The notes beneath the pieces were generated by a model, which searched no databases, had not been told where the DNA came from, and saw nothing but the letters and a program-made list of their open reading frames with translations. From Deltaproteobacteria bacterium (GTDB lineage: Bacteria; Myxococcota_A; Polyangia; Fen-1088): a stretch of DNA of 64,000 nt. This document shows, one piece after another, positions 9,788 through 22,288 of the stretch (position 1 is the first letter of the stretch; the number at the start of each line of letters is the position of its first letter). Both the position numbers and the translations under genes were made by a program. The stretch is taken from NCBI GenBank assembly GCA_033763315.1, contig JANRKS010000019.1, positions 224,001-288,000 on the forward strand, written 5' to 3'.

Positions 9788-10900
9788 ATGTCCAAGCACG
9801 TAGGCATCATTGGCTGGCGCGGCATGGTGGGATCCGTGCTCCTCGACCGCATGGTTGAAGAGCGCGATTTTGATCACATCCAGGCGCACTTTTTCTCGAC
9901 CTCCCAAACGGGCCAAGCGGGCCCCACGGTGGGCGGGAAAGCCACGGGCGCTTTGCAAGATGCCAATTCCATCGCGGCGTTGGCCAAGATGGACATCCTG
10001 ATTAGCTGCCAAGGCGGCGATTACACAAAGCAGGTGCACCCCGCGCTGCGCGCCGCCGGTTGGCGCGGCTATTGGATCGACGCCGCAAGCACGCTGCGCA
10101 TGGAAAACGACGCGGTGATCATCTTGGATCCTGTGAACAAGGACGTGATGGCCAAGGCCATCTCAAGTGGTTGCAAGGACCTGATCGGCGGCAACTGCAC
10201 GGTAAGCTTGATGCTGATGGCCACGGCGGAACTGTTTCGCCAAGGCTGGGTGCAATGGGTGAATTCATCCACGTACCAAGCGGCATCGGGCGCGGGCGCC
10301 AAGAACATGCGTGAACTTGTGGCGCAGATGCGCATGATTGGCCAAGAGGCATCGGCCTTGGTGGATGATCCAGCCGCGTCGGCCTTGGTGCTCGACAAGC
10401 GCGTGACCGACACAATTCGCAGCGCGCCGTTTCCCACAAGCGAATTCGGCGCGCCCCTGGCCGCAAGCTTGATCCCCTTCATCGACAAACCCGTGGAAGA
10501 CGGTCAATCGAAAGAAGAGTGGAAGGGCATGGTGGAAACCAACAAAATCTTGGGCTGCAACCCAGCCATTCCTGTGGATGGCGTGTGCGTGCGCGTGGGC
10601 GCGATGCGCAGCCACAGCCAAGCGTTGACGATCAAGCTCACACGTGATGTGCCGCTTGATGAAATCAACGATGCTATTCGCCGCAGCAACGATTGGGTGC
10701 GTTTGGTACCCAACACCAAGGAAGACACGCTGCGCGGCCTCAGCCCGGCGGCGGTTAGCGGCACATTGAACGTTGCCATCGGCCGTGTGCGCAAGATGAA
10801 GATGGGGCCCGATTTCTTGTCGGCATTTACGGTGGGCGATCAACTATTGTGGGGCGCGGCTGAACCGTTGCGTCGCACATTGCGCATGTTGATCGATTAA
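9788..10900 (+). CDS. asd: aspartate-semialdehyde dehydrogenase
   Basis: GWRGMVGSVL, CQGGDYT, GGNCTVSLM and GDQLLWGAAEP. Confidence 0.97.
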   Translation: MSKHVGIIGWRGMVGSVLLDRMVEERDFDHIQAHFFSTSQTGQAGPTVGGKATGALQDANSIAALAKMDILISCQGGDYTKQVHPALRAAGWRGYWIDAASTLRMENDAVIILDPVNKDVMAKAISSGCKDLIGGNCTVSLMLMATAELFRQGWVQWVNSSTYQAASGAGAKNMRELVAQMRMIGQEASALVDDPAASALVLDKRVTDTIRSAPFPTSEFGAPLAASLIPFIDKPVEDGQSKEEWKGMVETNKILGCNPAIPVDGVCVRVGAMRSHSQALTIKLTRDVPLDEINDAIRRSNDWVRLVPNTKEDTLRGLSPAAVSGTLNVAIGRVRKMKMGPDFLSAFTVGDQLLWGAAEPLRRTLRMLID

Positions 10901-12450
10901 TCGTAATACCCATCCACAAACCAATCACCGTTCTCACGATCTTGGTGCAAACGGTATAAAGCGCCGTCCGAGGCGTGCACATCCCAATAGTCCCGGCTCC
11001 AGCCTTCGTCTTTCCACCATTCGCTGCTGGTGCGGTAGGGGCCCGCGGCCACCAGGATGCGCGCGCTAAATCCGGTGCCGTGCATAGCGCTTGGCCCATC
11101 TCGGCCCATCAGAATCTCCACAGGCTGTGGTGGGCGATAACGGCGAATGCCAAGTTGTGGCGTTAACGTGTTTTGCTCCGCGGGCGCGGATGACCAACGC
11201 CACGGCACCATGTGACACTCTTCTTCTTTGAAGCTATCGGCCACTTGGGGTGCGCCCACATTTTCAGGGCCCACCAACGCCGTTAAGCGCGCGAGTGTGG
11301 CGGCCATGCGTTCAGGCGGCGGCCCCGCCGGGCGTAGAAAGTCCAACTGCACAGCACGCACGCGCGCGGGCCGCGCCAAGATCTCCGCGCCTATCACGGG
11401 CGAGGTGGGGGGGCGCCGCGCGATGTCCAAACGCAGCAGCTGCAACAATGTTTGTGCTTCACGCGTGGGCGCACCCATTTCAAGATCGCGCACGTCATAA
11501 CCGCGCGGTTCGAGCTTGAGTCGCAACGTCAAACCGTTGCACGCCAAATTGCGACAAGATAGCCGCGTCAACACGCGATCCACCAAGCCACGCAACACGA
11601 ACGCCAACGGTTCAATCGATTCAAGCGCGTAATCAAGCTCGGTGCCTTCAAGCACCGCATCGGGGGGCAACACGGGCGCAAAAGGTTCATCGTCACGCCC
11701 GGCAACCAAGCGGCGCAAGTGTGCGCCTTGCTCGCCCAAACGCAACGCCACGTCTTGCAGTGGCAGCGCCGCCAGATCGCCCAACCGCCGCACGCCCCAA
11801 CGTTGCAACTGTTCGCCCAGCTCGGCGATGGCGCGCACATCGGCCGGCAGGGCGGTGTCTTCATCACCGCTTTTGGTGAGCGCCTGCAAGCCCGCTTGCA
11901 AGGGCAGGGCGGCCAAAAACGCCGCGGCACCCGTGGGTGTGCTTGGCACCAACACGTGCTCGCCGGTGGCCCGTGTGGCGATGCGCGCGATGCCTTTGCT
12001 GCCAGCCACGGCCACGCGCACAGAAAGACCCAAGCGCGCCGCCCGCGATGTGATCGCCCGCGCAATGGCGGCTTCACCTTCGGGGTAAAGCTGCATCAGA
12101 TCTCCCACCTCGAAGAACACGCGGCCCGGTTCGGCGTCCACCCGGGGCGCAAAACTAAACCCCACATCGTTGAGCGCCGCTTGGGCCGCTTGCGTATCGG
12201 CTTCACTGCGCACCAACACCTCTAAACGATCGTCGAGCCGCGCGCTGCCCAACGCCCGCGCTTGATGCACTGTGAGTCCCTTGTGCAACCCCGCTTGCGC
12301 CGCCGCGCCTGTGAGCCCCACGATGCGTGCGCGTTCACCCGGGCCTGCCGCCAGCACGATGGCTTGTTGTTTGTGTTGCAGCCATTCCGGCGATCGCCGT
12401 AGCACCGCTTGCAATGCCAATTGAGGCGCATAGGCACAAGCCAAACGCAT
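10897..12450 (-). CDS. imuB: ImuB, catalytically inactive Y-family DNA polymerase
   Basis: Y-family-like N-terminus (AAQAGLHKGLTVHQARAL) lacking catalytic acidic residues, QLDF clamp-binding-like motif, and ImuB C-terminus GPYRTSSEWW...RDYW...WFVDGYYD. Lies downstream of imuA. Confidence 0.85.
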   Translation of the reverse strand: MRLACAYAPQLALQAVLRRSPEWLQHKQQAIVLAAGPGERARIVGLTGAAAQAGLHKGLTVHQARALGSARLDDRLEVLVRSEADTQAAQAALNDVGFSFAPRVDAEPGRVFFEVGDLMQLYPEGEAAIARAITSRAARLGLSVRVAVAGSKGIARIATRATGEHVLVPSTPTGAAAFLAALPLQAGLQALTKSGDEDTALPADVRAIAELGEQLQRWGVRRLGDLAALPLQDVALRLGEQGAHLRRLVAGRDDEPFAPVLPPDAVLEGTELDYALESIEPLAFVLRGLVDRVLTRLSCRNLACNGLTLRLKLEPRGYDVRDLEMGAPTREAQTLLQLLRLDIARRPPTSPVIGAEILARPARVRAVQLDFLRPAGPPPERMAATLARLTALVGPENVGAPQVADSFKEEECHMVPWRWSSAPAEQNTLTPQLGIRRYRPPQPVEILMGRDGPSAMHGTGFSARILVAAGPYRTSSEWWKDEGWSRDYWDVHASDGALYRLHQDRENGDWFVDGYYD

Positions 12451-12466
12451 AAACCACCTCCCGCGT

Positions 12467-13138
12467 TCAAACGGCGCGCGGCCAATGCAAAGCCACATCG
12501 CGCTTGGCATTGGTTGTTTCACCGCTGTTCCGCTCCACAACCGCCTGCGTGTGCAAATCCACGAGCAATGCCGGCGTGGCGCCGCCGCCTGCAAACCCGG
12601 GCCGCCCCGGCTGCAGCCGCAACGCCACACGCCCCAAAGCGCCCTGCGGGCGGTAAGGCGCGCCCACCACCAAAGCCGTGCGCTGTTCCGCTGCCGTGCG
12701 CTTTAAGCGCTGCCAGGCGCCCATAGGGGCTTTGGCTTGCTGATCCCCAAAATCAATCGCCAGCAAACCAAAGCCCCCTGCGCCCAACACCATATCTGCC
12801 GCTGGTAACGCCTGGACCGCGTCACACCGTACCCACAGCAAACGCACAAGGGGTACCCCCAGCGTTTGCGCCCAGCGCGGATCCAACCCGCCGCCCACAT
12901 CCACCAAAGCCGCAGCCTCCCCGGCGGCCAAGGCATTTCCCAACGACATCAACAGCAACGTCATCCTTCCACTCGACCGCGGGCCCGCCACCTCACTCAA
13001 CCCCCCCCGCGGCCATCCACCCCCAATCACCTCATCCACCACGGCCATACCCGTGCCCAGCCTCCCGCCCGTTTCCCGTTGCTCCAAAACCCGGGCTGGA
13101 ACCAGATGTGCCGCCAGAGCTGAAGACCACGTTGCCAT
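12467..13138 (-). CDS. imuA: ImuA, RecA-like mutagenesis accessory protein
   Basis: GGGWPRGGLSEVAGPRSSGRMTL (degenerate Walker A), AALVD and RLLWVR. Short RecA core. Confidence 0.85.
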   Translation of the reverse strand: MATWSSALAAHLVPARVLEQRETGGRLGTGMAVVDEVIGGGWPRGGLSEVAGPRSSGRMTLLLMSLGNALAAGEAAALVDVGGGLDPRWAQTLGVPLVRLLWVRCDAVQALPAADMVLGAGGFGLLAIDFGDQQAKAPMGAWQRLKRTAAEQRTALVVGAPYRPQGALGRVALRLQPGRPGFAGGGATPALLVDLHTQAVVERNSGETTNAKRDVALHWPRAV

Positions 13139-14302: not shown

Positions 14303-16006
14303 ATGAAGTTCCGTATCGGCTTGGCTCTAAGTGCGTGTGCAAGCGTCTTGCTATTGGGAGGCTGCTCAAGTGGTGGCGGAACCTCTGACGAAAACCAAGG
14401 CGGCGAGGGCGGTGGAGGCGGCGGTGGTGACTCGGGCGGCAACGCCGGCGGCGACGCTGGTTCTTCTTCCTCATCTGGCGGAGGCAAAGGCGGCACAGCG
14501 ACGTCGCAAGGTGGCGGTGGTGGTGCGGATGATGGCGGAAGTTCCCCGGGCTCGTTGCCGCTGTTGACCAAAGCCGTCAACGACAGCAACTGGGGCGAAG
14601 GCTTCAAAGTCGCTGTGCCCCCGGGCGTCGTGATTCTGCCTGGCGGCACTCAGTACATAGCGGGGCCCAAATTCGCTAAACCGCTCCCTGTGTGGAGCGG
14701 CATGTCCCGCACAATGAACTTGCTCAAGAGCAGCACGGCCGATAAGCGCAACACAGTTAAGATCTTGTTCTACGGACAGTCGATCACGCGACAAGAGTGG
14801 TTTGTCACTGTCACAGATGAGCTCAAGAAGCAGTTTCCGAATGCTGATATACAAACCTGGATGTTGGCGGCCGGCGGCATGGCCGCGGATCGAATGCGGC
14901 GCGCTTCTGAACATGATGTGATTCCTCTATATCCAGATTTGATCATCTACCAGAACTACGGCGGATACACGGACATCGACGGGATTTTGCAGGATTGGCG
15001 TTCACGGACCACCGCTGAAATCATCATTCAAAATTGGCATTTGGGCAGTGACGCTGGGAACGCCGGTGTGGACCGCATGTCGTATCTCTTCATCCCAGAT
15101 GTCGCTCGCCGCTTGGGTGCCGAGTTCCTCGATTCGCGCACGGCGTTCAAGGAATATATTGCCGCCAAGAACCTTTCGAATACAGGCCTTACCGGGGATG
15201 GCATCCATCTCAATGCCGAGGGCATGACGGTGATGGCCAAGCTTCATGTTGATCTGTTCAAGAACTATCCAGCCGCCACCGTGACCGATCCACTGGCGAT
15301 GGTGAATACGTTCGAGGTTGGTAAAGATGTGAAGTGGAACGGCGGCACTTTGGCGTTCGAGTTCGAAGGCAATCGAGTTGATCTTATTGTGAGCAACGGC
15401 TCTATGGTTGCGGCTGAGGCCGCCACAATTCTTGTCGATGGAAAGAAGCCCTCAGAATTTCCAGGAAACTACGCGTTCACGCGGCCCAATGGGGATGGCA
15501 AGAACATCAACAAGCCCGAGCCAGGTTGGCCTTGGACACCAGGGGCGGTGATGCGCGTGGATTCCATGGCTGCACGCGTGGTTGAGGATTGGACACTGAA
15601 AATCACCAATCGCAATGGCTCTAATTTCTCGTTCACAGTTGAAGGTTCTGTTACGGGGCCTGATGGCGGCGGGATGGTTATGGGCGCCAACGGCACAGGT
15701 ACAGGAACGACGTCGTTCGTATCGAATTCCAAGCGGGTCGTGATCAAGCCGAGCGACTGGCAGTTCGAAGGCGCGATGAAGGAATGGAACCTTGCCACCA
15801 ACCAGGTCGTTTGGAAGTCAATCGCTTTGTCCACGGATGTGTTCCCACCGAAAGCTGTGAATGCCTCAGACAGCAAGATCGAGTATGCCGTGACGTTGTT
15901 TCAGGGCCTGCCAAACGGGAAGCATAAAGTCGAGATCAAGACCAAGGACGGCAAGTCATTGCCGCTCGCCTCGGTTAGAACTTTCAGACCGCCGCTGAAG
16001 TTGTAG
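14303..16006 (+). CDS. lipoprotein with SGNH/GDSL hydrolase domain and C-terminal beta-rich domain
   Basis: LGGC lipobox, Gly/Ser linker, block I FYGQSIT and block V DGIHLN. Confidence 0.75.
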   Translation: MKFRIGLALSACASVLLLGGCSSGGGTSDENQGGEGGGGGGGDSGGNAGGDAGSSSSSGGGKGGTATSQGGGGGADDGGSSPGSLPLLTKAVNDSNWGEGFKVAVPPGVVILPGGTQYIAGPKFAKPLPVWSGMSRTMNLLKSSTADKRNTVKILFYGQSITRQEWFVTVTDELKKQFPNADIQTWMLAAGGMAADRMRRASEHDVIPLYPDLIIYQNYGGYTDIDGILQDWRSRTTAEIIIQNWHLGSDAGNAGVDRMSYLFIPDVARRLGAEFLDSRTAFKEYIAAKNLSNTGLTGDGIHLNAEGMTVMAKLHVDLFKNYPAATVTDPLAMVNTFEVGKDVKWNGGTLAFEFEGNRVDLIVSNGSMVAAEAATILVDGKKPSEFPGNYAFTRPNGDGKNINKPEPGWPWTPGAVMRVDSMAARVVEDWTLKITNRNGSNFSFTVEGSVTGPDGGGMVMGANGTGTGTTSFVSNSKRVVIKPSDWQFEGAMKEWNLATNQVVWKSIALSTDVFPPKAVNASDSKIEYAVTLFQGLPNGKHKVEIKTKDGKSLPLASVRTFRPPLKL

Positions 16007-16045
16007 GTGAAGGCAACGGCATGGGTATTGCCTCACTCATTTGCG

Positions 16046-16498
16046 ATGAGCCTCAATCTCAAGACTGAGCCGGTATCCCCGCCGCCCCCCAAACACATCC
16101 AGCGCGCTGAGCTTGTCGCGCGGCTTCTTGATCGACACTACCTCGATCCCATCCTCGGCTTCGTGGCCCCCGGCATGGGTGATGGGGTGGGGCTGTTGTT
16201 GGGGCTCTATATCGTGTTTGCGGCGCGGCAAGCAAAGGCGTCGCGGATGTTACAGGCGCGCATGTTGCTAAATCTGGCTGCAGATGGGCTGCTGGGTGCC
16301 GTGCCGCTGATCGGCGATTTGTTCGACATCGCGTTCAAAGCAAATACTCGTAACCTTGAGCTCCTCAAGCGAGACGATGTCACGAAACCAAAGCCCACCG
16401 ATGGTTTGGTATTGGCGCTCGCTTTCGTGCTGTTCTTAGCCGCCCTGGCCGTGCCCGTGGTGGTGTTCGTGGCCTTTGTGAAGTGGATGTTCTCCTGA
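16046..16498 (+). CDS. DUF4112-family membrane protein
   Basis: ARLLD, LDPILGFVAPGMGD and GAVPLIGDLFDIAFKANTRN. Confidence 0.85.
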   Translation: MSLNLKTEPVSPPPPKHIQRAELVARLLDRHYLDPILGFVAPGMGDGVGLLLGLYIVFAARQAKASRMLQARMLLNLAADGLLGAVPLIGDLFDIAFKANTRNLELLKRDDVTKPKPTDGLVLALAFVLFLAALAVPVVVFVAFVKWMFS

Positions 16499-16549
16499 CG
16501 CACGTTACATCATCAGGACGGTGCGTGGTGTTCTCTCCACGTGCTGCCG

Positions 16550-17041
16550 CTACTCCCGCGCGCGCCGCGATGGTCGTGCCGACGCGCGCAGCGCCCGCAT
16601 GCGATCGAGCTCCTCATCGGCGCGGCCAGCCAGCTCTCGCCACACCTGCAGCAAGGTTGCCAGATCGGCCAAGCGAGAACCCGTCAGCGAATCCACCGGC
16701 AGATCGCGCTCAAGGCATGCCATGTCGCTTTCAGGCACCACCGCCACATTGTTCAGGGCCGCCAGGCCGTCCTCAAACGAACGTGTTTGGTTGCTGCCAA
16801 ACACCGTTTGCGAAAGGTGCTCAGACAGGGTGACCGCCATCAGGTGATGGGCGCGCATGAATGCCGAGGGCGTGGGCTTGGCGATGAAGGCCTCAAGCAA
16901 GGCCACGCAAGGCTGCGCACGCTCGGCGGGCATCCGAGGCAGCGCCCACGCCGCGCGCGCATAGAGTGTGGCGGCCAAGCGTTGCGTGGGGGAGGGCACG
17001 TGTTTGGTGCGCGGCATAGACGTTTCAGAGTTGAGCATCAT
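16550..17041 (-). CDS. hypothetical helical protein (gene 4 of the MotAB-like operon)
   Basis: 163-aa ORF with ATGA overlap to the MotB-like gene. No recognised motif. Confidence 0.65.
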   Translation of the reverse strand: MMLNSETSMPRTKHVPSPTQRLAATLYARAAWALPRMPAERAQPCVALLEAFIAKPTPSAFMRAHHLMAVTLSEHLSQTVFGSNQTRSFEDGLAALNNVAVVPESDMACLERDLPVDSLTGSRLADLATLLQVWRELAGRADEELDRMRALRASARPSRRARE

Positions 17042-17670
17042 CGAGAAGCCACCGTGGTGATGGGAACAAGCAAAACTTCAATGCGGCGGTTGCGGCGCCG
17101 CGCTTCTTCTGTGTCGTTGCTCGCCCGTGGGTGGTGTTCGCCGAACCCTGCGGCCACCACCTTATCGGCGGGCACACCCGCGGTCATCAACACGCGCGAC
17201 ACAGCGACGGCACGCGCTGCCGAGAGTTCCCAATTGTTTGCGAAGCGACCGGGACGCAGCGACTTGTTATCGGTGTGGCCCCCCACCAACGCCATTTGGT
17301 TCGGTTCCGCTTTGAGCAGTTTCGCGAGTGCCTCACCCATCGTGCCGATCAGCCTTTCGCCCTCGGCCGTCAACGCGTCCGAACCCGATGCAAACAGCAC
17401 TTCGCCTTGCAAAATGACTTTGCCGCCCTCGATGTCCACCACACTGCTTGGAGCCAATGCCCGCAGGCGCCGCTCGATGCGCGCTTTCTCGTCGCGCAAG
17501 CGTGTCAGTTCATCGTCAGCCGTGCGCAGCCGCGCCAACAAACGGTGTTGTGCGAGCACGGCCACCAACATCAGCAGCACCACCGCCGCCAACACCAACG
17601 TCACGGCATCGACAAACGGCGGCCACACATTGACGGGGAACAGGCGTCGCCGCCCCACGCCGGCTCTCAT
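17038..17670 (-). CDS. MotB/ZorB-like protein (TM with conserved Asp plus OmpA-like peptidoglycan-binding domain)
   Basis: NVWPPFVDAVTLV TM (Asp21), short coiled coil, VLFASGSD, GHTDN, NWELSAARA and NRRIE. Confidence 0.88.
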   Translation of the reverse strand: MRAGVGRRRLFPVNVWPPFVDAVTLVLAAVVLLMLVAVLAQHRLLARLRTADDELTRLRDEKARIERRLRALAPSSVVDIEGGKVILQGEVLFASGSDALTAEGERLIGTMGEALAKLLKAEPNQMALVGGHTDNKSLRPGRFANNWELSAARAVAVSRVLMTAGVPADKVVAAGFGEHHPRASNDTEEARRRNRRIEVLLVPITTVASR

Positions 17671-20159
17671 GAATGCGCCTCTTCCATTTCGGGCGCGTGC
17701 GGCTCGCGGGCCAAACGCACCAAGCTGGCCAAACGTTCGAGGCCATCGCCCATGCGTTCAAGTTCGGCCATCACAACGGCGCTGCCATGCGCGGAATCGG
17801 CGTGCGCCGACATCACAGCCACTTCGTGCGTCAACCGCTCAAGTTCACCGGCCAGCGCGTCCAGACGCGGTTGCAGCGGTTCCAATGTGGCGTGCATTGT
17901 GCGCGTGGCGTCCACCAATTTGCCCGCGGCTTTTTCCAGCCGATCGCCGCTCACCAACATCGCGTCGCCCAACCCCGAAACCAACGACGACGCCGTGGCG
18001 TGCAATGTCTCGGCGTGGCCACGAACGGCGCTGTCCACCGCAGAGGCAGTTTGTTGGCCCAAGCCCGAGAGCAACGATTCGGTGCGCGCCGCCATGCTGC
18101 CCAAGCTTTCGATCACGCTGTGGCTTGCTTCCACCAACGAGCCCGACGCTTGTGTGATCATCGTGGCCGCGCTCTCCGAAAGCACGCGGTTCGTTTCGGC
18201 CAACGCCGTTTCTGTGCGCGAGGCGAGGGTGGCAAAGCCTTCGCTGATGTTACGACCCGTTTGTTCCAGGTGGGCGTGGGTGGCAATCGTGTTGCTGGCC
18301 ACAGCCGCCAGCACGCTGCGGCTTGTTTCTTCTAGCAGCGTTTTGGTGCTTTGTGTGTTGGCGTTCAATGCACCCATCACGCCTTGGCTGGTTTGCTCCA
18401 GGTTTGAAGAAAGCGTCGACGCCAAGGTCGAAAGCGTGCCATTGAAACGCTCCTCGGCTTGCGACAAACGAGCTGTCGCCTCGTTTGATGTTTGCCCCAA
18501 GGCCAACGCCACACGCTCAGCCACCGTGGCCAGCGCCGCACTGGCTTCCTCCGTGGCCCGCGCCATGCGCTCAGCCGAACGTTCGCTTGAAAGCGTCAGT
18601 CCCTCTGCCTGCGCCACCGTGGCTGCCGACAAAGCGTCAACCACTTTTTGTCCCGTGGCCGCCAACGCCGCACTGGTGTTCTGCGCTTGCGCGCCTAAGG
18701 CGCCCGACACGTCATCCGCGCGGCGTACCAAGGCGTGCAGCTCTTCCAGGTTTTGCGCCAACGAAGATGCCAGAACTTTGCGTTCCGATGACTCCGCCAA
18801 AAATAGCGGTGCCAATGTGTCGGACAACGCCTTCGCCGCTTCGGCCACCGCGGCGCCCGTTCGCTCCACCGATGTTTGTGCCGACGTGGTCACAGATTCC
18901 ACAAGCGACGCCACAGACGTGGATACATCTCGCGACAGCGCTTGTCGCTCTTTCTCAGCGTCGGCCAACAAGCGCGAGGCCAAGTCGGCATTGGCCTGCG
19001 CGGCCTGCGCGAGGTGCGCCTGCGCTGTGGCCACAACCTTTTGCAGGTGCTCGGTCATCTGTTCTGCAACCATCGCCGATTGCAGCGCCGAATCTTCCGC
19101 GTGCTTTGTGGCCGCGGCCGCGCTCGCTTCAAGCCGCTGGGCCAACGACGCCACAACCTCATCTGCATTCTTCACAAGCCCGGCCGCCACCTTCGTGACA
19201 GTGCCATCAAGGTGCTGTGCCTGTTGCCGCGTGGCCTCCGCCAAAGTTTTTGCAACGGTGTCGGTTAAGCCTTGCAGCTGGGCTTCCACTTTCACCGCCG
19301 TCTTGGAAAGCTCAGCGGATGTTTGCTTGGTGTGCGTGCCAACGACGTCGGCCATCTGCAGGGCGCCAACCGAAAGCTCTTTCGCCAACGCTGTCATGCG
19401 CTCGTCTTGCGACTTGTTCAAGGCTTCTGTCGCTTGTTTAAGCGCACCCGCCACCGCTTGCGCGATCTCCGTATGCAACCCTTCAAGCACGCGCACGGTG
19501 CGTTCGTTGGCATCGCGCTCAAGGGGCCACAACGCGGGGACCAACTGGTGGTGGGTCAGATCTTCAAGCGTCGCCAGCGCCTGCTCTTCGTGAAGCACCA
19601 GATCGCCTTGTGCCAACGAAAGTGCGAGCGTCACGACGATCGCCACAAGGCTGGCCCCGAAGGTCACATGCAAACCTGAAAGCGGCGCGGCCAATAAGCT
19701 CAGCGCTTTGCCTGCTCCATCATCGGCCAAAAGCGGCGCCACTTTGCCCAATGTCTCCATCAGGCCTGCGAACGTGCCCACCAACCCCACAAGCACAGTG
19801 GTGGCCACGAGATAACGCCCGAAGTACGCGCGGCTCGCTTCTTTCGCCGCCGAGGCTTCGGCTAAAGCGCGCAGATCCGGGCGCGCGCCCGACGCCTTGA
19901 TCGCTTCCAAGCGTTGGCGCCGCTCTTCGTAAAGGGTGCCCGCGGGCGCCTTCGCCGCCATCCCCGCGAGCTCCACGTGGATGCGCCGACGGGCCAGGCC
20001 CAGACTCGCCATGCCCGCAACTGTTATCACTGCCAGCACAACGACGGCCGCGATGCCCAAGGCCAACCCGTGCTCGGCATACGTTCGCAACGCCGAAACG
20101 GCGGCGAATAAACCAACCACGGCCAAAACGGCGGCCAATGCCCATCGCACGCGACTCAT
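17667..20159 (-). CDS. MotA/TolQ/ExbB-like channel subunit with very long helical C-terminal tail (ZorA-like architecture)
   Basis: Four hydrophobic segments including VLVGLVGTFAGL and PLSGLHVTFGASL, then ~640 Ala/Leu/Ser/Thr/Glu-rich residues almost free of Pro and aromatics. GGAGG SD and ATGA overlap at 20156-20159. Confidence 0.8.
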   Translation of the reverse strand: MSRVRWALAAVLAVVGLFAAVSALRTYAEHGLALGIAAVVVLAVITVAGMASLGLARRRIHVELAGMAAKAPAGTLYEERRQRLEAIKASGARPDLRALAEASAAKEASRAYFGRYLVATTVLVGLVGTFAGLMETLGKVAPLLADDGAGKALSLLAAPLSGLHVTFGASLVAIVVTLALSLAQGDLVLHEEQALATLEDLTHHQLVPALWPLERDANERTVRVLEGLHTEIAQAVAGALKQATEALNKSQDERMTALAKELSVGALQMADVVGTHTKQTSAELSKTAVKVEAQLQGLTDTVAKTLAEATRQQAQHLDGTVTKVAAGLVKNADEVVASLAQRLEASAAAATKHAEDSALQSAMVAEQMTEHLQKVVATAQAHLAQAAQANADLASRLLADAEKERQALSRDVSTSVASLVESVTTSAQTSVERTGAAVAEAAKALSDTLAPLFLAESSERKVLASSLAQNLEELHALVRRADDVSGALGAQAQNTSAALAATGQKVVDALSAATVAQAEGLTLSSERSAERMARATEEASAALATVAERVALALGQTSNEATARLSQAEERFNGTLSTLASTLSSNLEQTSQGVMGALNANTQSTKTLLEETSRSVLAAVASNTIATHAHLEQTGRNISEGFATLASRTETALAETNRVLSESAATMITQASGSLVEASHSVIESLGSMAARTESLLSGLGQQTASAVDSAVRGHAETLHATASSLVSGLGDAMLVSGDRLEKAAGKLVDATRTMHATLEPLQPRLDALAGELERLTHEVAVMSAHADSAHGSAVVMAELERMGDGLERLASLVRLAREPHAPEMEEAHS

Positions 20160-20686
20160 ACCCACCTCCGGGCCAACTCGTGGAGGGCGGGGGCCAGGTC
20201 TAAGAAGGGACGTCCGTGTGGCATGAGATCTCTATCGTCCATTGCTTCCATTCGTGTGCGTAATCGAATCAGGGAGGGCAGCCGCGTTTCCAACAACGAG
20301 ACAACGGCAAAAGCGGTTCGCAACGCCCACAAGCCTTCGGTGGCCAGCGCCACCACGGCCGGCTCCCCCATCAAGACCGCATAGCGCAAGTCTTGGCGGG
20401 CCAAGAGCAGCATCTCGAGGGCGTCCTCGTCGAGCAGTGCCATGGAGCCAGTTTGCTCCCAGGCCCACGTCGCCGAACGCAGCGCCGCGGGCAGGCGCTC
20501 ATCCACCAAAGTCGCCATGCGGGCCAACGTGTTTCGGACATGCCGACGAACCCCCTCGGCCGTCGGCAAAGCTTCAGGCGCAGGTTCGCCGGCACCCGAG
20601 GGACGCCACGGGTTTTTTCGTCGCGGCAGGGGTGCAAGCGCGGGCGTAACAGCCGGAGCCCCGGGCAAAGCGGTCACCATGCGCAA
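20156..20686 (-). CDS. hypothetical protein (gene 1 of the MotAB-like operon)
   Basis: 176-aa ORF with a Pro-rich N-terminus then helical core. Stop overlaps the MotA-like ATG. Start is TTG 20686 or ATG 20680. Confidence 0.65.
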   Translation of the reverse strand: MRMVTALPGAPAVTPALAPLPRRKNPWRPSGAGEPAPEALPTAEGVRRHVRNTLARMATLVDERLPAALRSATWAWEQTGSMALLDEDALEMLLLARQDLRYAVLMGEPAVVALATEGLWALRTAFAVVSLLETRLPSLIRLRTRMEAMDDRDLMPHGRPFLDLAPALHELARRWV

Positions 20687-20722
20687 CAGATCGAGGAGGG
20701 GTCGCGTGCGAATAAGGGTCGC

Positions 20723-20752
20723 ACGTTAGGGGTTCACATTCCACCCTGTCAA
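20723..20752 (-). promoter_or_regulatory. putative sigma70 promoter of the four-gene operon
   Basis: TTGACA-N18-TAACGT on the minus strand. Confidence 0.5.
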
Positions 20753-20822
20753 CCCGCCGCTCGACCCGCGGAAAAACCCATACAGTTCCCGCAACTTGCC
20801 CTGTTTTAGCCTGTGGTTAGGC

Positions 20823-20831
20823 TGTGGATAA
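20823..20831 (-). promoter_or_regulatory. perfect DnaA box (TTATCCACA)
   Basis: The + strand reads TGTGGATAA in an intergenic region, with a degenerate copy TGTGGTTAG at 20812-20820. Confidence 0.45.
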
Positions 20832-20844
20832 TTTGCCGGGCGCC

Positions 20845-21918
20845 TTAGATGGCGGGCAGGCACGCCCCATAGGTGTTGTAGACGGGGTTCGTCAGCTTTT
20901 CGCAGGTTCGGCCGGGGCCGCACGTGGCGGGCTCGGTCAGCTTGCAGATAGGCCGGCAGGCGAGGGCGCCTCCCGTCATCACGCAGAAGGTGCCTGGTTG
21001 GCAATCGCCCGTGGTTTGGCAGGTTGCGCCTTCGCCACCGAATTGGGTGGATACGACGCACGCACAGTCCGCCACTTCTTGTGAAAACACGATGCAGCGC
21101 AAGCCTTCCGCACAGCCGGCTTTTGCTTCGCCGCGCGGGTCGCACGGTTGCGAACAGGTGCGGACGCCCGAAGGAACGTTGTTGCCGCAGACTTGTTCGC
21201 GGAAGCACGTGGCGCCGTTGGCGCAATCCGCGTTGGTGCGGCACAACTTCTGGCACACCTTCGGACCGCAGTTCTCCTGGGCGCATTGCGATCCGGGCGC
21301 ACACTCGCCCGGGCCCGTGCAAAGTTCGCCCGGCTGTTTCGTGCCCGCAGCCACGCACTTCGACGTGGGCTTGTCACCCAAGCACGAAAGGCCACACGTG
21401 CCGTTGGCGCCGCAGGCGTTCACATCACCCACGGTGCACATCATCAAGCTTGCATCTGCGCCGGCATCTGATGACCCGCCGTCGCTCACACCGCCGTCAT
21501 TCTGCACGGGCGGCTTGGCGCCTTTGGTCACCAGCACCGTGGCGTACGCGATGCGACCCGCCGCGATCTGCACGTTGGGGTTTTCGCCATATCCAAGCAC
21601 ATTGCCGCTCACATCGAGTGCGGTGGCGCTCAGCATGGCTTTGCCCACGAAAGCGTCTGAAAAGCTGACCGACAAGGTCGTGTCCGTCAGTTGCGTGAGC
21701 TCCAGCATGGGTCCCGGCTTTGAGCCGTATGTCAGATCGTCGGTCATGCCCGACGCTGTCAACTGCAAACGAACCTGCGCCACTCCCGGGATCGGATCGC
21801 TAAACGCGCGCAAGGCCACCACGATGTAGGATCGCCCCTGCGTACATGCACCGAGCAGCGCCAACAAGGGCAGGATGGCTAGACGGCTCCAGGCCGTTTT
21901 CAGGTTAGCGGAACGCAC
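20845..21918 (-). CDS. myxobacterial Cys-rich-repeat lipoprotein
   Basis: GTG start overlapping the upstream stop. MRSANLK...LLGAC lipobox, beta-rich domain, DGG linker, then repeated C-x(4-5)-C-x(2)-G-x(2)-C modules. Confidence 0.8.
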   Translation of the reverse strand: MRSANLKTAWSRLAILPLLALLGACTQGRSYIVVALRAFSDPIPGVAQVRLQLTASGMTDDLTYGSKPGPMLELTQLTDTTLSVSFSDAFVGKAMLSATALDVSGNVLGYGENPNVQIAAGRIAYATVLVTKGAKPPVQNDGGVSDGGSSDAGADASLMMCTVGDVNACGANGTCGLSCLGDKPTSKCVAAGTKQPGELCTGPGECAPGSQCAQENCGPKVCQKLCRTNADCANGATCFREQVCGNNVPSGVRTCSQPCDPRGEAKAGCAEGLRCIVFSQEVADCACVVSTQFGGEGATCQTTGDCQPGTFCVMTGGALACRPICKLTEPATCGPGRTCEKLTNPVYNTYGACLPAI

Positions 21919-22288
21919 GCATATCCCCCAAGATCGTCTTCGGTTCTTCTTGCGAGCGGCCCGCCACAAGGACGATGGCCACAGTCGTTGCCACAACACC
22001 GGCAGCGGCGGCCCAAAACCACCACGTCTCCGTGATGGGGCGCTGTTGCTCCGTGGGGTGGGGCCGCAAGTCCATTCCGGTCTCGCTGTCTTGACCGTCT
22101 TGCGGAGGGGTGACCGTGGGAAGTGGCACGGCAGCGCTTGCGTTGGCCGTTCCGGTGGCGGTGACGGCCGCGGGGGGCGGCGTGGTGCTGGCGGGGGCTT
22201 GCGCCCAAGCCGCCGAGGAAACGCCCCAGATGCCCACAAGGAGCGTCGAGGCAACCACTGCCATTCGCAAGCTATGCATGTATTTCAC
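21905..22288 (-). CDS. small secreted/membrane protein with C-terminal WWFW hydrophobic segment
   Basis: Signal peptide (AWA-Q), Pro/Thr/Ala linker, RPITETWWFWAAAAGVV. Confidence 0.7.
   Translation of the reverse strand: MKYMHSLRMAVVASTLLVGIWGVSSAAWAQAPASTTPPPAAVTATGTANASAAVPLPTVTPPQDGQDSETGMDLRPHPTEQQRPITETWWFWAAAAGVVATTVAIVLVAGRSQEEPKTILGDMRAFR

Follow-up and report, generated by a model that had tools for sequence, protein, structure and literature searches.

Three types of Zorya are described in the parts of the literature drawn on here. Type III consists of zorAB with genes for a DUF3348 protein and a DUF2894 protein, has no nuclease, and is ordered small protein, A subunit, B subunit, small protein (PMC8565338; PMC11946911; PMC11890865). 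One type III system has been tested heterologously and protects against phages (Payne et al., 2021; PMC8565338). The two small proteins go by shifting names: DUF3348 is ZorF in the text of PMC8565338 and ZorG in PADLOC-DB 2.0 (PDLC00652-658), and PMC11946911 prints both zorFABG and zorGABF. In type I, the solved Escherichia coli ZorA5B2 complex combines a channel Asp with a dimeric domain that binds peptidoglycan and with a tail 70 nm long, the tip of which is required for effector recruitment; E. coli ZorA is described as having three transmembrane helices (Hu et al., 2024; PMC11946911).

Here, we analysed a stretch of 64,000 nucleotides (hereafter, the window) from a Deltaproteobacteria bacterium (GTDB Myxococcota_A; Polyangia; Fen-1088), positions 224,001 to 288,000 of the forward strand of contig JANRKS010000019.1 (assembly GCA_033763315.1). 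On its minus strand lies an operon of four genes, numbered 1 to 4 in the direction of reading, in which a MotA/MotB-like stator pair (genes 2 and 3) is flanked by two small proteins (genes 1 and 4); an earlier note on this DNA had singled it out as Zorya-like. The operon, with its counterparts in other genomes (hereafter, the cassette), is on balance best explained as a Myxococcota (Polyangia) relative of type III Zorya. It would be a lineage-specific variant of a type III-like system, with two new accessory families that are so far confined to Polyangia. As judged from the sequences, what is new here are two flanking proteins that show no relation to DUF3348 or DUF2894, together with a very diverged ZorA.

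The stator pair

Gene 3 encodes a B subunit of the ZorB3 type, as found in type III systems, with the two features expected of a ZorAB core, a channel Asp in the transmembrane helix and a peptidoglycan-binding domain. It matches the PADLOC model of ZorB3 (PDLC00651) with 144 bits (E 1e-42), residues 14-205 aligning with positions 14-206 of the 215 in the model, against just 67 bits for the next-best PADLOC model, ZorB1; a canonical ZorB3 reaches 370 bits on the same ZorB3 model. When aligned with the ZorB3 of a Variovorax locus annotated DUF3348 / DUF802 / OmpA / DUF2894, the protein is 37% identical from end to end (E 2e-35). A transmembrane helix, on which W16 and D21 lie, is joined by a short coiled-coil linker to a peptidoglycan-binding domain of the OmpA type (Pfam OmpA, E 3.6e-19), and the residues W16, D21, D134, N146, L149, S150, R153 and R195-R196 are invariant among 12 aligned B-subunit sequences. 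The motifs read out of gene 3 in the earlier note, WPPFVD (with D21) and NWELSxxRA (here NWELSAARA), are both present, and its view of the stator pair as Zorya-like is borne out, ZorB3 being by far the best model for gene 3. The genome has one full-length copy of the gene.

Judged from its sequence, gene 2 is a very diverged channel subunit of the MotA/ExbB type with a cytoplasmic tail of roughly 640 residues, as the A subunit of a ZorAB core would be; the tail, rich in Ala, Leu, Ser, Glu and Thr and with 7 prolines, is predicted from this composition to be helical. Four hydrophobic segments (residues about 5-28, 30-58, 116-135 and 160-188) are present, as is the MotA/ExbB core motif GLVGTFAGL to which the earlier note had drawn attention, followed by the long tail. 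Gene 2 scores 33 bits (E 5.7e-9) on the PADLOC ZorA3 model (PDLC00648), on which the canonical Variovorax ZorA scores 1326 bits, and 17.7 bits on the ZorA1 model. BLASTP against the Variovorax ZorA aligned the GTFxG motif alone, whereas hhalign matched the ZorA-like head to the canonical ZorA3 head (prob 92%, E 5e-7), over the transmembrane segments TM3-TM4 only; a Pfam scan found no DUF802 match in gene 2. By DUF802 repeats and the ZorA3 models, then, the A subunit is not of the ZorA3 type. Cassette ZorAs are about 490 to 990 aa long, with the first ~320 and the last ~150 residues conserved and the middle variable, and this conserved tail end parallels the functional tail tip of E. coli ZorA.

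Other identities for the two subunits were considered and set aside. The pair is not a flagellar MotAB stator: gene 3 reaches 45-103 bits on the NCBIfam MotB, MotD and MotS models, the cut-offs of which are 250-301, and no flagellar genes are adjacent. Alphaproteobacterial B subunits of the PRK09039 type, which have a MotA/TolQ/ExbB partner, share an OmpA-type C-terminal half with gene 3 (NCBIfam NF006544, E 2.4e-41), but the match is partial (residues 72-201 only) and lies at 142 bits, below the cut-off of 362. In the B-subunit tree these proteins group apart (SH-aLRT 99), and none of the gene-1, gene-4, DUF3348 or DUF2894 families is encoded beside them; by model scores and trees alike, gene 3 falls outside this housekeeping group, to which the earlier note had allowed that it might belong. 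As to TolQR or ExbBD, gene 2 scores 20.6 bits on PF01618, below the cut-off of 22.9, and its partner B subunit has an OmpA domain. The cut-off is passed by 14 ordinary MotA/ExbB paralogues encoded elsewhere in the genome, so the cassette is not the genome's Tol or Exb system.

The flanking genes and the layout of the operon

Inheritance of genes 1 and 4 is strictly linked to that of the A-B pair. A scan of species genomes with a gene-1 alignment yielded 32 loci, 7 of them duplicating loci already collected. Their titles are mostly Myxococcota, Myxococcales or Polyangia, the remainder being 'uncultured proteobacterium' (4), 'delta proteobacterium/Deltaproteobacteria' (3) and 'Pseudomonadota bacterium' (1). 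Gene 1 is followed directly by a ZorA-like head in all 32 loci, and ZorB and gene 4 follow in order in all 25 that are long enough, the other 7 ending at a contig edge; the 25 complete loci all have the small-A-B-small order of type III on one strand. At first, genes 1 and 4 had been detected together, at a distance of about 3 kb, in 6 of 24 further genomes from the family. The co-occurrence on which the earlier note had made its proposal depend is thus strict, and the gene order is kept across Myxococcota/Polyangia.

A second scan of species genomes, with a ZorB alignment, gave 79 ZorB-related loci. DUF3348 and/or DUF2894 genes accompany ZorB in 27 of these, all from Pseudomonadota (three, truncated upstream, show DUF2894 alone), and genes 1 and 4 in two, from Myxococcota; the remaining 50, mostly alphaproteobacterial PRK09039-type proteins or OmpA lipoproteins, have neither pair. 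Mixed loci, with DUF3348 or DUF2894 as well as gene 1 or gene 4, were absent (0/79). A quick maximum-likelihood tree was built from 91 B subunits. Nine of these come from loci with genes 1 and 4 and fall into a single clade (SH-aLRT 99; 97-99 over this and the trimmed tree), the canonical ZorB3 proteins fall into another (SH-aLRT 100), and both stand apart from the alphaproteobacterial group. In the trimmed tree, from which 8 long-branch rows and 22 further rows of the 'other' category were removed, only these three groups remain, and they stay apart.

The gene-1 protein is soluble, with a Pro-rich disordered N-terminus followed by a helical bundle; in its family W76 is the sole invariant residue, and the C-terminal motif LLPxGRPFLDL is conserved. 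The gene-4 protein has a conserved Arg-rich C-terminal tail. Searches of Pfam, PADLOC and NCBIfam with both proteins and their relatives, up to E 10, returned nothing relevant. AlphaFold2 models both as generic helical bundles; Foldseek found no match to either model in the PDB at E<=0.001, and the ESM Atlas gave no usable feature match, the structural neighbours being unrelated helical proteins (TM-score up to 0.55). The gene-1 family comprises 121 cluster representatives at E<=0.001 among 1.84 billion entries, and 32 proteins among 5.8 billion belong to the gene-4 family. Two families that at present carry no annotation are thereby defined, one with about 120 and the other with about 30 sequence clusters. 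In one 273-aa protein (P0012) the end of an OmpA domain is joined to a gene-4 homologue, as either a ZorB-gene-4 fusion or a frameshifted gene call.

The earlier note had suggested that genes 1 and 4 are new effectors or adaptors. That they belong to no known family and are undescribed stands; since neither has an enzymatic fold, however, they are more likely to act as adaptors, regulators or sensors than as nucleases.

Genes 1 and 4 might instead be orthologues of the DUF3348 and DUF2894 genes that have diverged beyond sequence detection, in which case the operon is a type III Zorya of the ordinary kind and nothing has been replaced. In gene positions, strand and style of overlap it matches type III exactly, the B subunit is homologous, and all four accessory families are small and have no enzymatic domain assigned. 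Moreover, in hhalign comparisons with diverged proteins of the same class, the best sub-threshold match of the gene-1 family is to a DUF3348 protein (E 0.054, 42 columns around the invariant Trp), a faint hint of a relationship and the only one; the gene-4 family reaches E 0.12 with DUF2894. We nevertheless regard this explanation as clearly unlikely. Pfam DUF3348 and DUF2894 found no match at E<=10 in 8 gene-1 relatives, 13 gene-4 relatives and 22 further family members, and in six-frame searches PF11445 did not match the cassette at E<=1 and PF11828 matched nothing in the genome at E<=10. The Variovorax DUF3348 and DUF2894 proteins, used as positive controls, scored 301 and 258 bits on the PADLOC models. 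A comparison of alignments by hhalign gave E 0.27 for the gene-1 family (90 sequences) against 29 DUF3348 proteins and E 0.36 for the gene-4 family (32 sequences) against 33 DUF2894 proteins, and similar values were obtained with the DUFs swapped; a search of PDB sequences found no DUF3348 or DUF2894 structure. In addition, the two proteins are 60-80 residues shorter than their counterparts, and a DUF3348/DUF2894 pair was detected in the same class, so that the Pfam models are able to detect such proteins in this lineage. Neither gene 1, upstream of zorA, nor gene 4, downstream of zorB, is recognisable as the DUF protein that occupies the corresponding place in type III.

The pair in the same class is itself of note (locus L035, 7839-10888, minus strand). 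A DUF3348 protein of 306 aa, a 476-aa protein without a Pfam family and a DUF2894 protein of 233 aa are encoded there, with no OmpA/ZorB gene between the DUF3348 and DUF2894 genes. The locus may represent what is left of a Zorya III system, or a variant that lacks the motor.

The coordinates of the operon are collected in Table 1. As the earlier note had described, the four open reading frames (ORFs) are present and overlap by ATGA at all three junctions; the G+C content at third codon positions (GC3) is 0.71-0.76 across the four, similar to that of the neighbouring genes.

Table 1. Genes of the operon and its putative promoter (window coordinates)
Feature	Position	Strand	Description
Gene 1	20156-20686	minus	176 aa from TTG; 174 aa if ATG 20680 is used
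Gene 2	17667-20159 (ORF 17667-20165, ATG 20159)	minus	830 aa; ZorA-like A subunit
Gene 3	17038-17670	minus	210 aa; ZorB3-type B subunit
Gene 4	16550-17041	minus	163 aa; soluble, all-helical
Putative promoter	20723-20752	minus	TTGACA 20752-20747, 18-nt spacer, TAACGT 20728-20723

The promoter proposed in the earlier note, TTGACA-N18-TAACGT, fared less evenly. Both hexamers exist and are invariant in two congeneric genomes, in which the spacer sequence and the DNA further upstream vary; a sigma-70 consensus scan of positions 16000-21500, however, called no promoter site, missing this one because TAACGT agrees with the consensus at only three of six positions. Read in the frame of gene 1, the DNA between TAACGT and the ATG of the two congeners shows 6 synonymous changes against 2 non-synonymous ones; this part is probably translated there, and the '-10' may be coding. 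The promoter is thus plausible but unproven. At this place the window has one base fewer than the two congeners (L016 and L017), which places the TAA of TAACGT (20728-20726) in frame with gene 1 and shuts the gene-1 frame upstream. Among sequencing runs, no RNA run is listed for this DNA, and three DNA runs contain small shares. Contigs of an independent DNA run from a ~93% identical relative cover the whole stretch with no indel near 20722, so the one-nucleotide difference is probably real, and the species of the window, with this deletion relative to its congeners, probably makes an N-terminally shortened gene-1 protein. An N-terminal peptide, IRxRxLxxL....ALPG, is conserved across genera in the gene-1 family; in the window (20680-20728), the first canonical start codon of gene 1 comes after it.

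Distribution, genomic context and likely role

The cassette has the distribution of an accessory element. In the window's family, which is represented by 89 species genomes from 19 genera, a gene-1 homologue was found in 25 genomes and 10 genera, many of the genomes being incomplete metagenome-assembled genomes; within genera its presence ranges widely (11/26, 3/8, 1/13, 1/11, 1/2, 0/5 and 0/5). Of 401 genomes sampled evenly across the phylum, 2 match, the window's own included; only 8 candidates were scored per genome there, which limited the sensitivity.

The neighbourhoods of 7 + 25 loci (54 and 89 neighbour proteins) contain ordinary metabolic, regulatory and envelope genes, and the PADLOC kinase and sigma-54-type AAA matches among them are generic domain matches. 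Throughout the genus (three genomes), the cassette has an imuB-like gene on one side and ino1-rpsB-tsf on the other; in other genera it lies in unrelated contexts, different in each. The flanks of the window encode a DUF4112 protein, a GH16 protein, a RecA-like protein, an IMS-family protein, inositol-1-phosphate synthase and proteins of no assigned family, and a domain scan of the neighbours agreed with the earlier note in finding no flagellar, Tol, TonB or Agl domains. On the minus strand of the window, at 10897-13138, the gene for a RecA-fold protein (223 aa, ImuA-like) overlaps that for an IMS/Y-family polymerase-like protein (577 aa, ImuB-like); the pair looks like a mutagenesis cassette and is kept beside the operon within the genus. 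Directly upstream of the operon (20845-22254, minus strand) lies the gene for a 469-aa Cys-rich protein without a Pfam family, 54% identical to the neighbour in one congener. In two other loci (L130 and L136) convergent helicase genes stand beside the cassette. In a further one (L134, 8015-8617), a gene for a 200-aa 3'-5' exonuclease (DNA_pol_A_exo1) follows gene 4 on its strand at a distance of 12 nt; this exonuclease could be an added effector in that lineage.

Anti-phage defence is the most likely role of the cassette, by analogy with the type III system tested by Payne et al. (2021) and given the patchy distribution. Several points weigh against the reading of the operon as a Zorya relative with this role. 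Gene 2 is barely recognisable as ZorA3 (33 against 1326 bits), and three of four other cassette ZorAs have no PADLOC match at 1e-5. The junction of the cassette and ZorB3 clades is weakly supported (SH-aLRT 80), over long branches and in an unrooted tree. No integrase, transposase, recognisable defence system, defence island or mobile element was found in the 32 contexts, so that the enrichment near defence genes for which the earlier note had proposed to look is not visible. The synteny shared by the three genomes of the genus is also what a vertically inherited cellular function would show. Finally, the analogy on which defence is argued goes back to a single heterologous test, made with a distant type III system, and no effector activity can be named for the cassette.

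A second alternative is an envelope machine of Polyangia with a role other than defence, that is, a peptidoglycan-anchored ion motor, with its tail and two adaptors, serving envelope-stress signalling, surface remodelling or secretion. None of the 32 loci has the surroundings of a defence island or mobile element, synteny within the genus places the cassette beside housekeeping genes, and no nuclease or other effector fold is encoded; given this context and synteny, a non-defence role keeps some standing. A locus of related composition (L021, 9470-13988) has, in place of ZorB and gene 4, a cell-wall hydrolase, an SLT/LysM lytic transglycosylase of 720 aa, encoded after a gene-1-like protein and a MotA-like protein of 581 aa, an arrangement that also speaks for a function in the envelope. 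However, the cassette was not found in 64 of the 89 family genomes and varies between species of one genus, which would be unusual for a core function, although many genomes are incomplete, and its closest characterised relative, type III Zorya, protects against phages (PMC8565338). We therefore consider a non-defence machine rather unlikely, and retain the type III-like Zorya as the favoured reading.

By analogy with the type I ZorA5B2 complex as described in PMC11946911, the A and B subunits of such a system would form a 5:2 ion-driven rotary unit anchored to the cell wall, in which ion flow would turn the pentameric tail. The conserved tail tip would then pass the signal to the gene-1 and gene-4 proteins, its likely contacts, acting in one of the non-nuclease capacities considered above.

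Comparison with described Zorya systems

A literature search that included Zorya in combination with myxobacteria returned no description of the cassette or of a further Zorya type, although supplementary tables might list such loci. Whether the cassette deserves the rank of a type of its own is a separate matter: it may be a fourth, Polyangia-specific Zorya type, a ZorAB3-like tailed motor in which both accessory subunits have been exchanged for two unrelated helical proteins, a proposal that we make tentatively and at somewhat less than even confidence. If true, the ZorA tail would be a general signalling platform that takes different output modules, nuclease-free ones included.

As in type I, the B subunit of the cassette combines a channel Asp with a domain for peptidoglycan binding, and the A subunit has a very long, presumably helical tail with a conserved tip. 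The cassette differs from type I in having neither ZorC nor the ZorD helicase-nuclease, in its low scores on the type I models (ZorB1, 67 bits; ZorA1, 17.7 bits), and in the four hydrophobic segments of its ZorA, as compared with the three transmembrane helices of the E. coli protein. The earlier note had taken the lack of ZorC, ZorD and ZorE as a sign of novelty, but type III Zorya, as presented in PMC8565338, is likewise nuclease-free and has the same layout, so their absence here is not unusual.

Type III and the cassette each have their four genes on one strand, with a long-tailed MotA-like A subunit and a MotB-OmpA-like B subunit, in this order, between two small proteins; the B subunits are homologous over their full length, and neither system has a nuclease or helicase partner. 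Gene 1 holds the position of the DUF3348 gene and gene 4 that of the DUF2894 gene. In contrast, no similarity to DUF3348 or DUF2894 can be detected in either small protein, both are shorter than those of type III (176 and 163 aa as compared with about 246 and 220-236 aa), the cassette ZorA has no DUF802 repeats and scores 33 bits on ZorA3, and the hosts differ, Myxococcota in the one case and Burkholderiales and Lysobacteraceae in the other. The PADLOC models would not call the cassette as a complete system, and current defence-finder models overlook whole branches of Zorya-like systems in poorly sampled phyla. With the same motor and four-gene layout and different helpers, the cassette and type III offer a natural comparison for helper function and tail recognition in nuclease-free type III Zorya.

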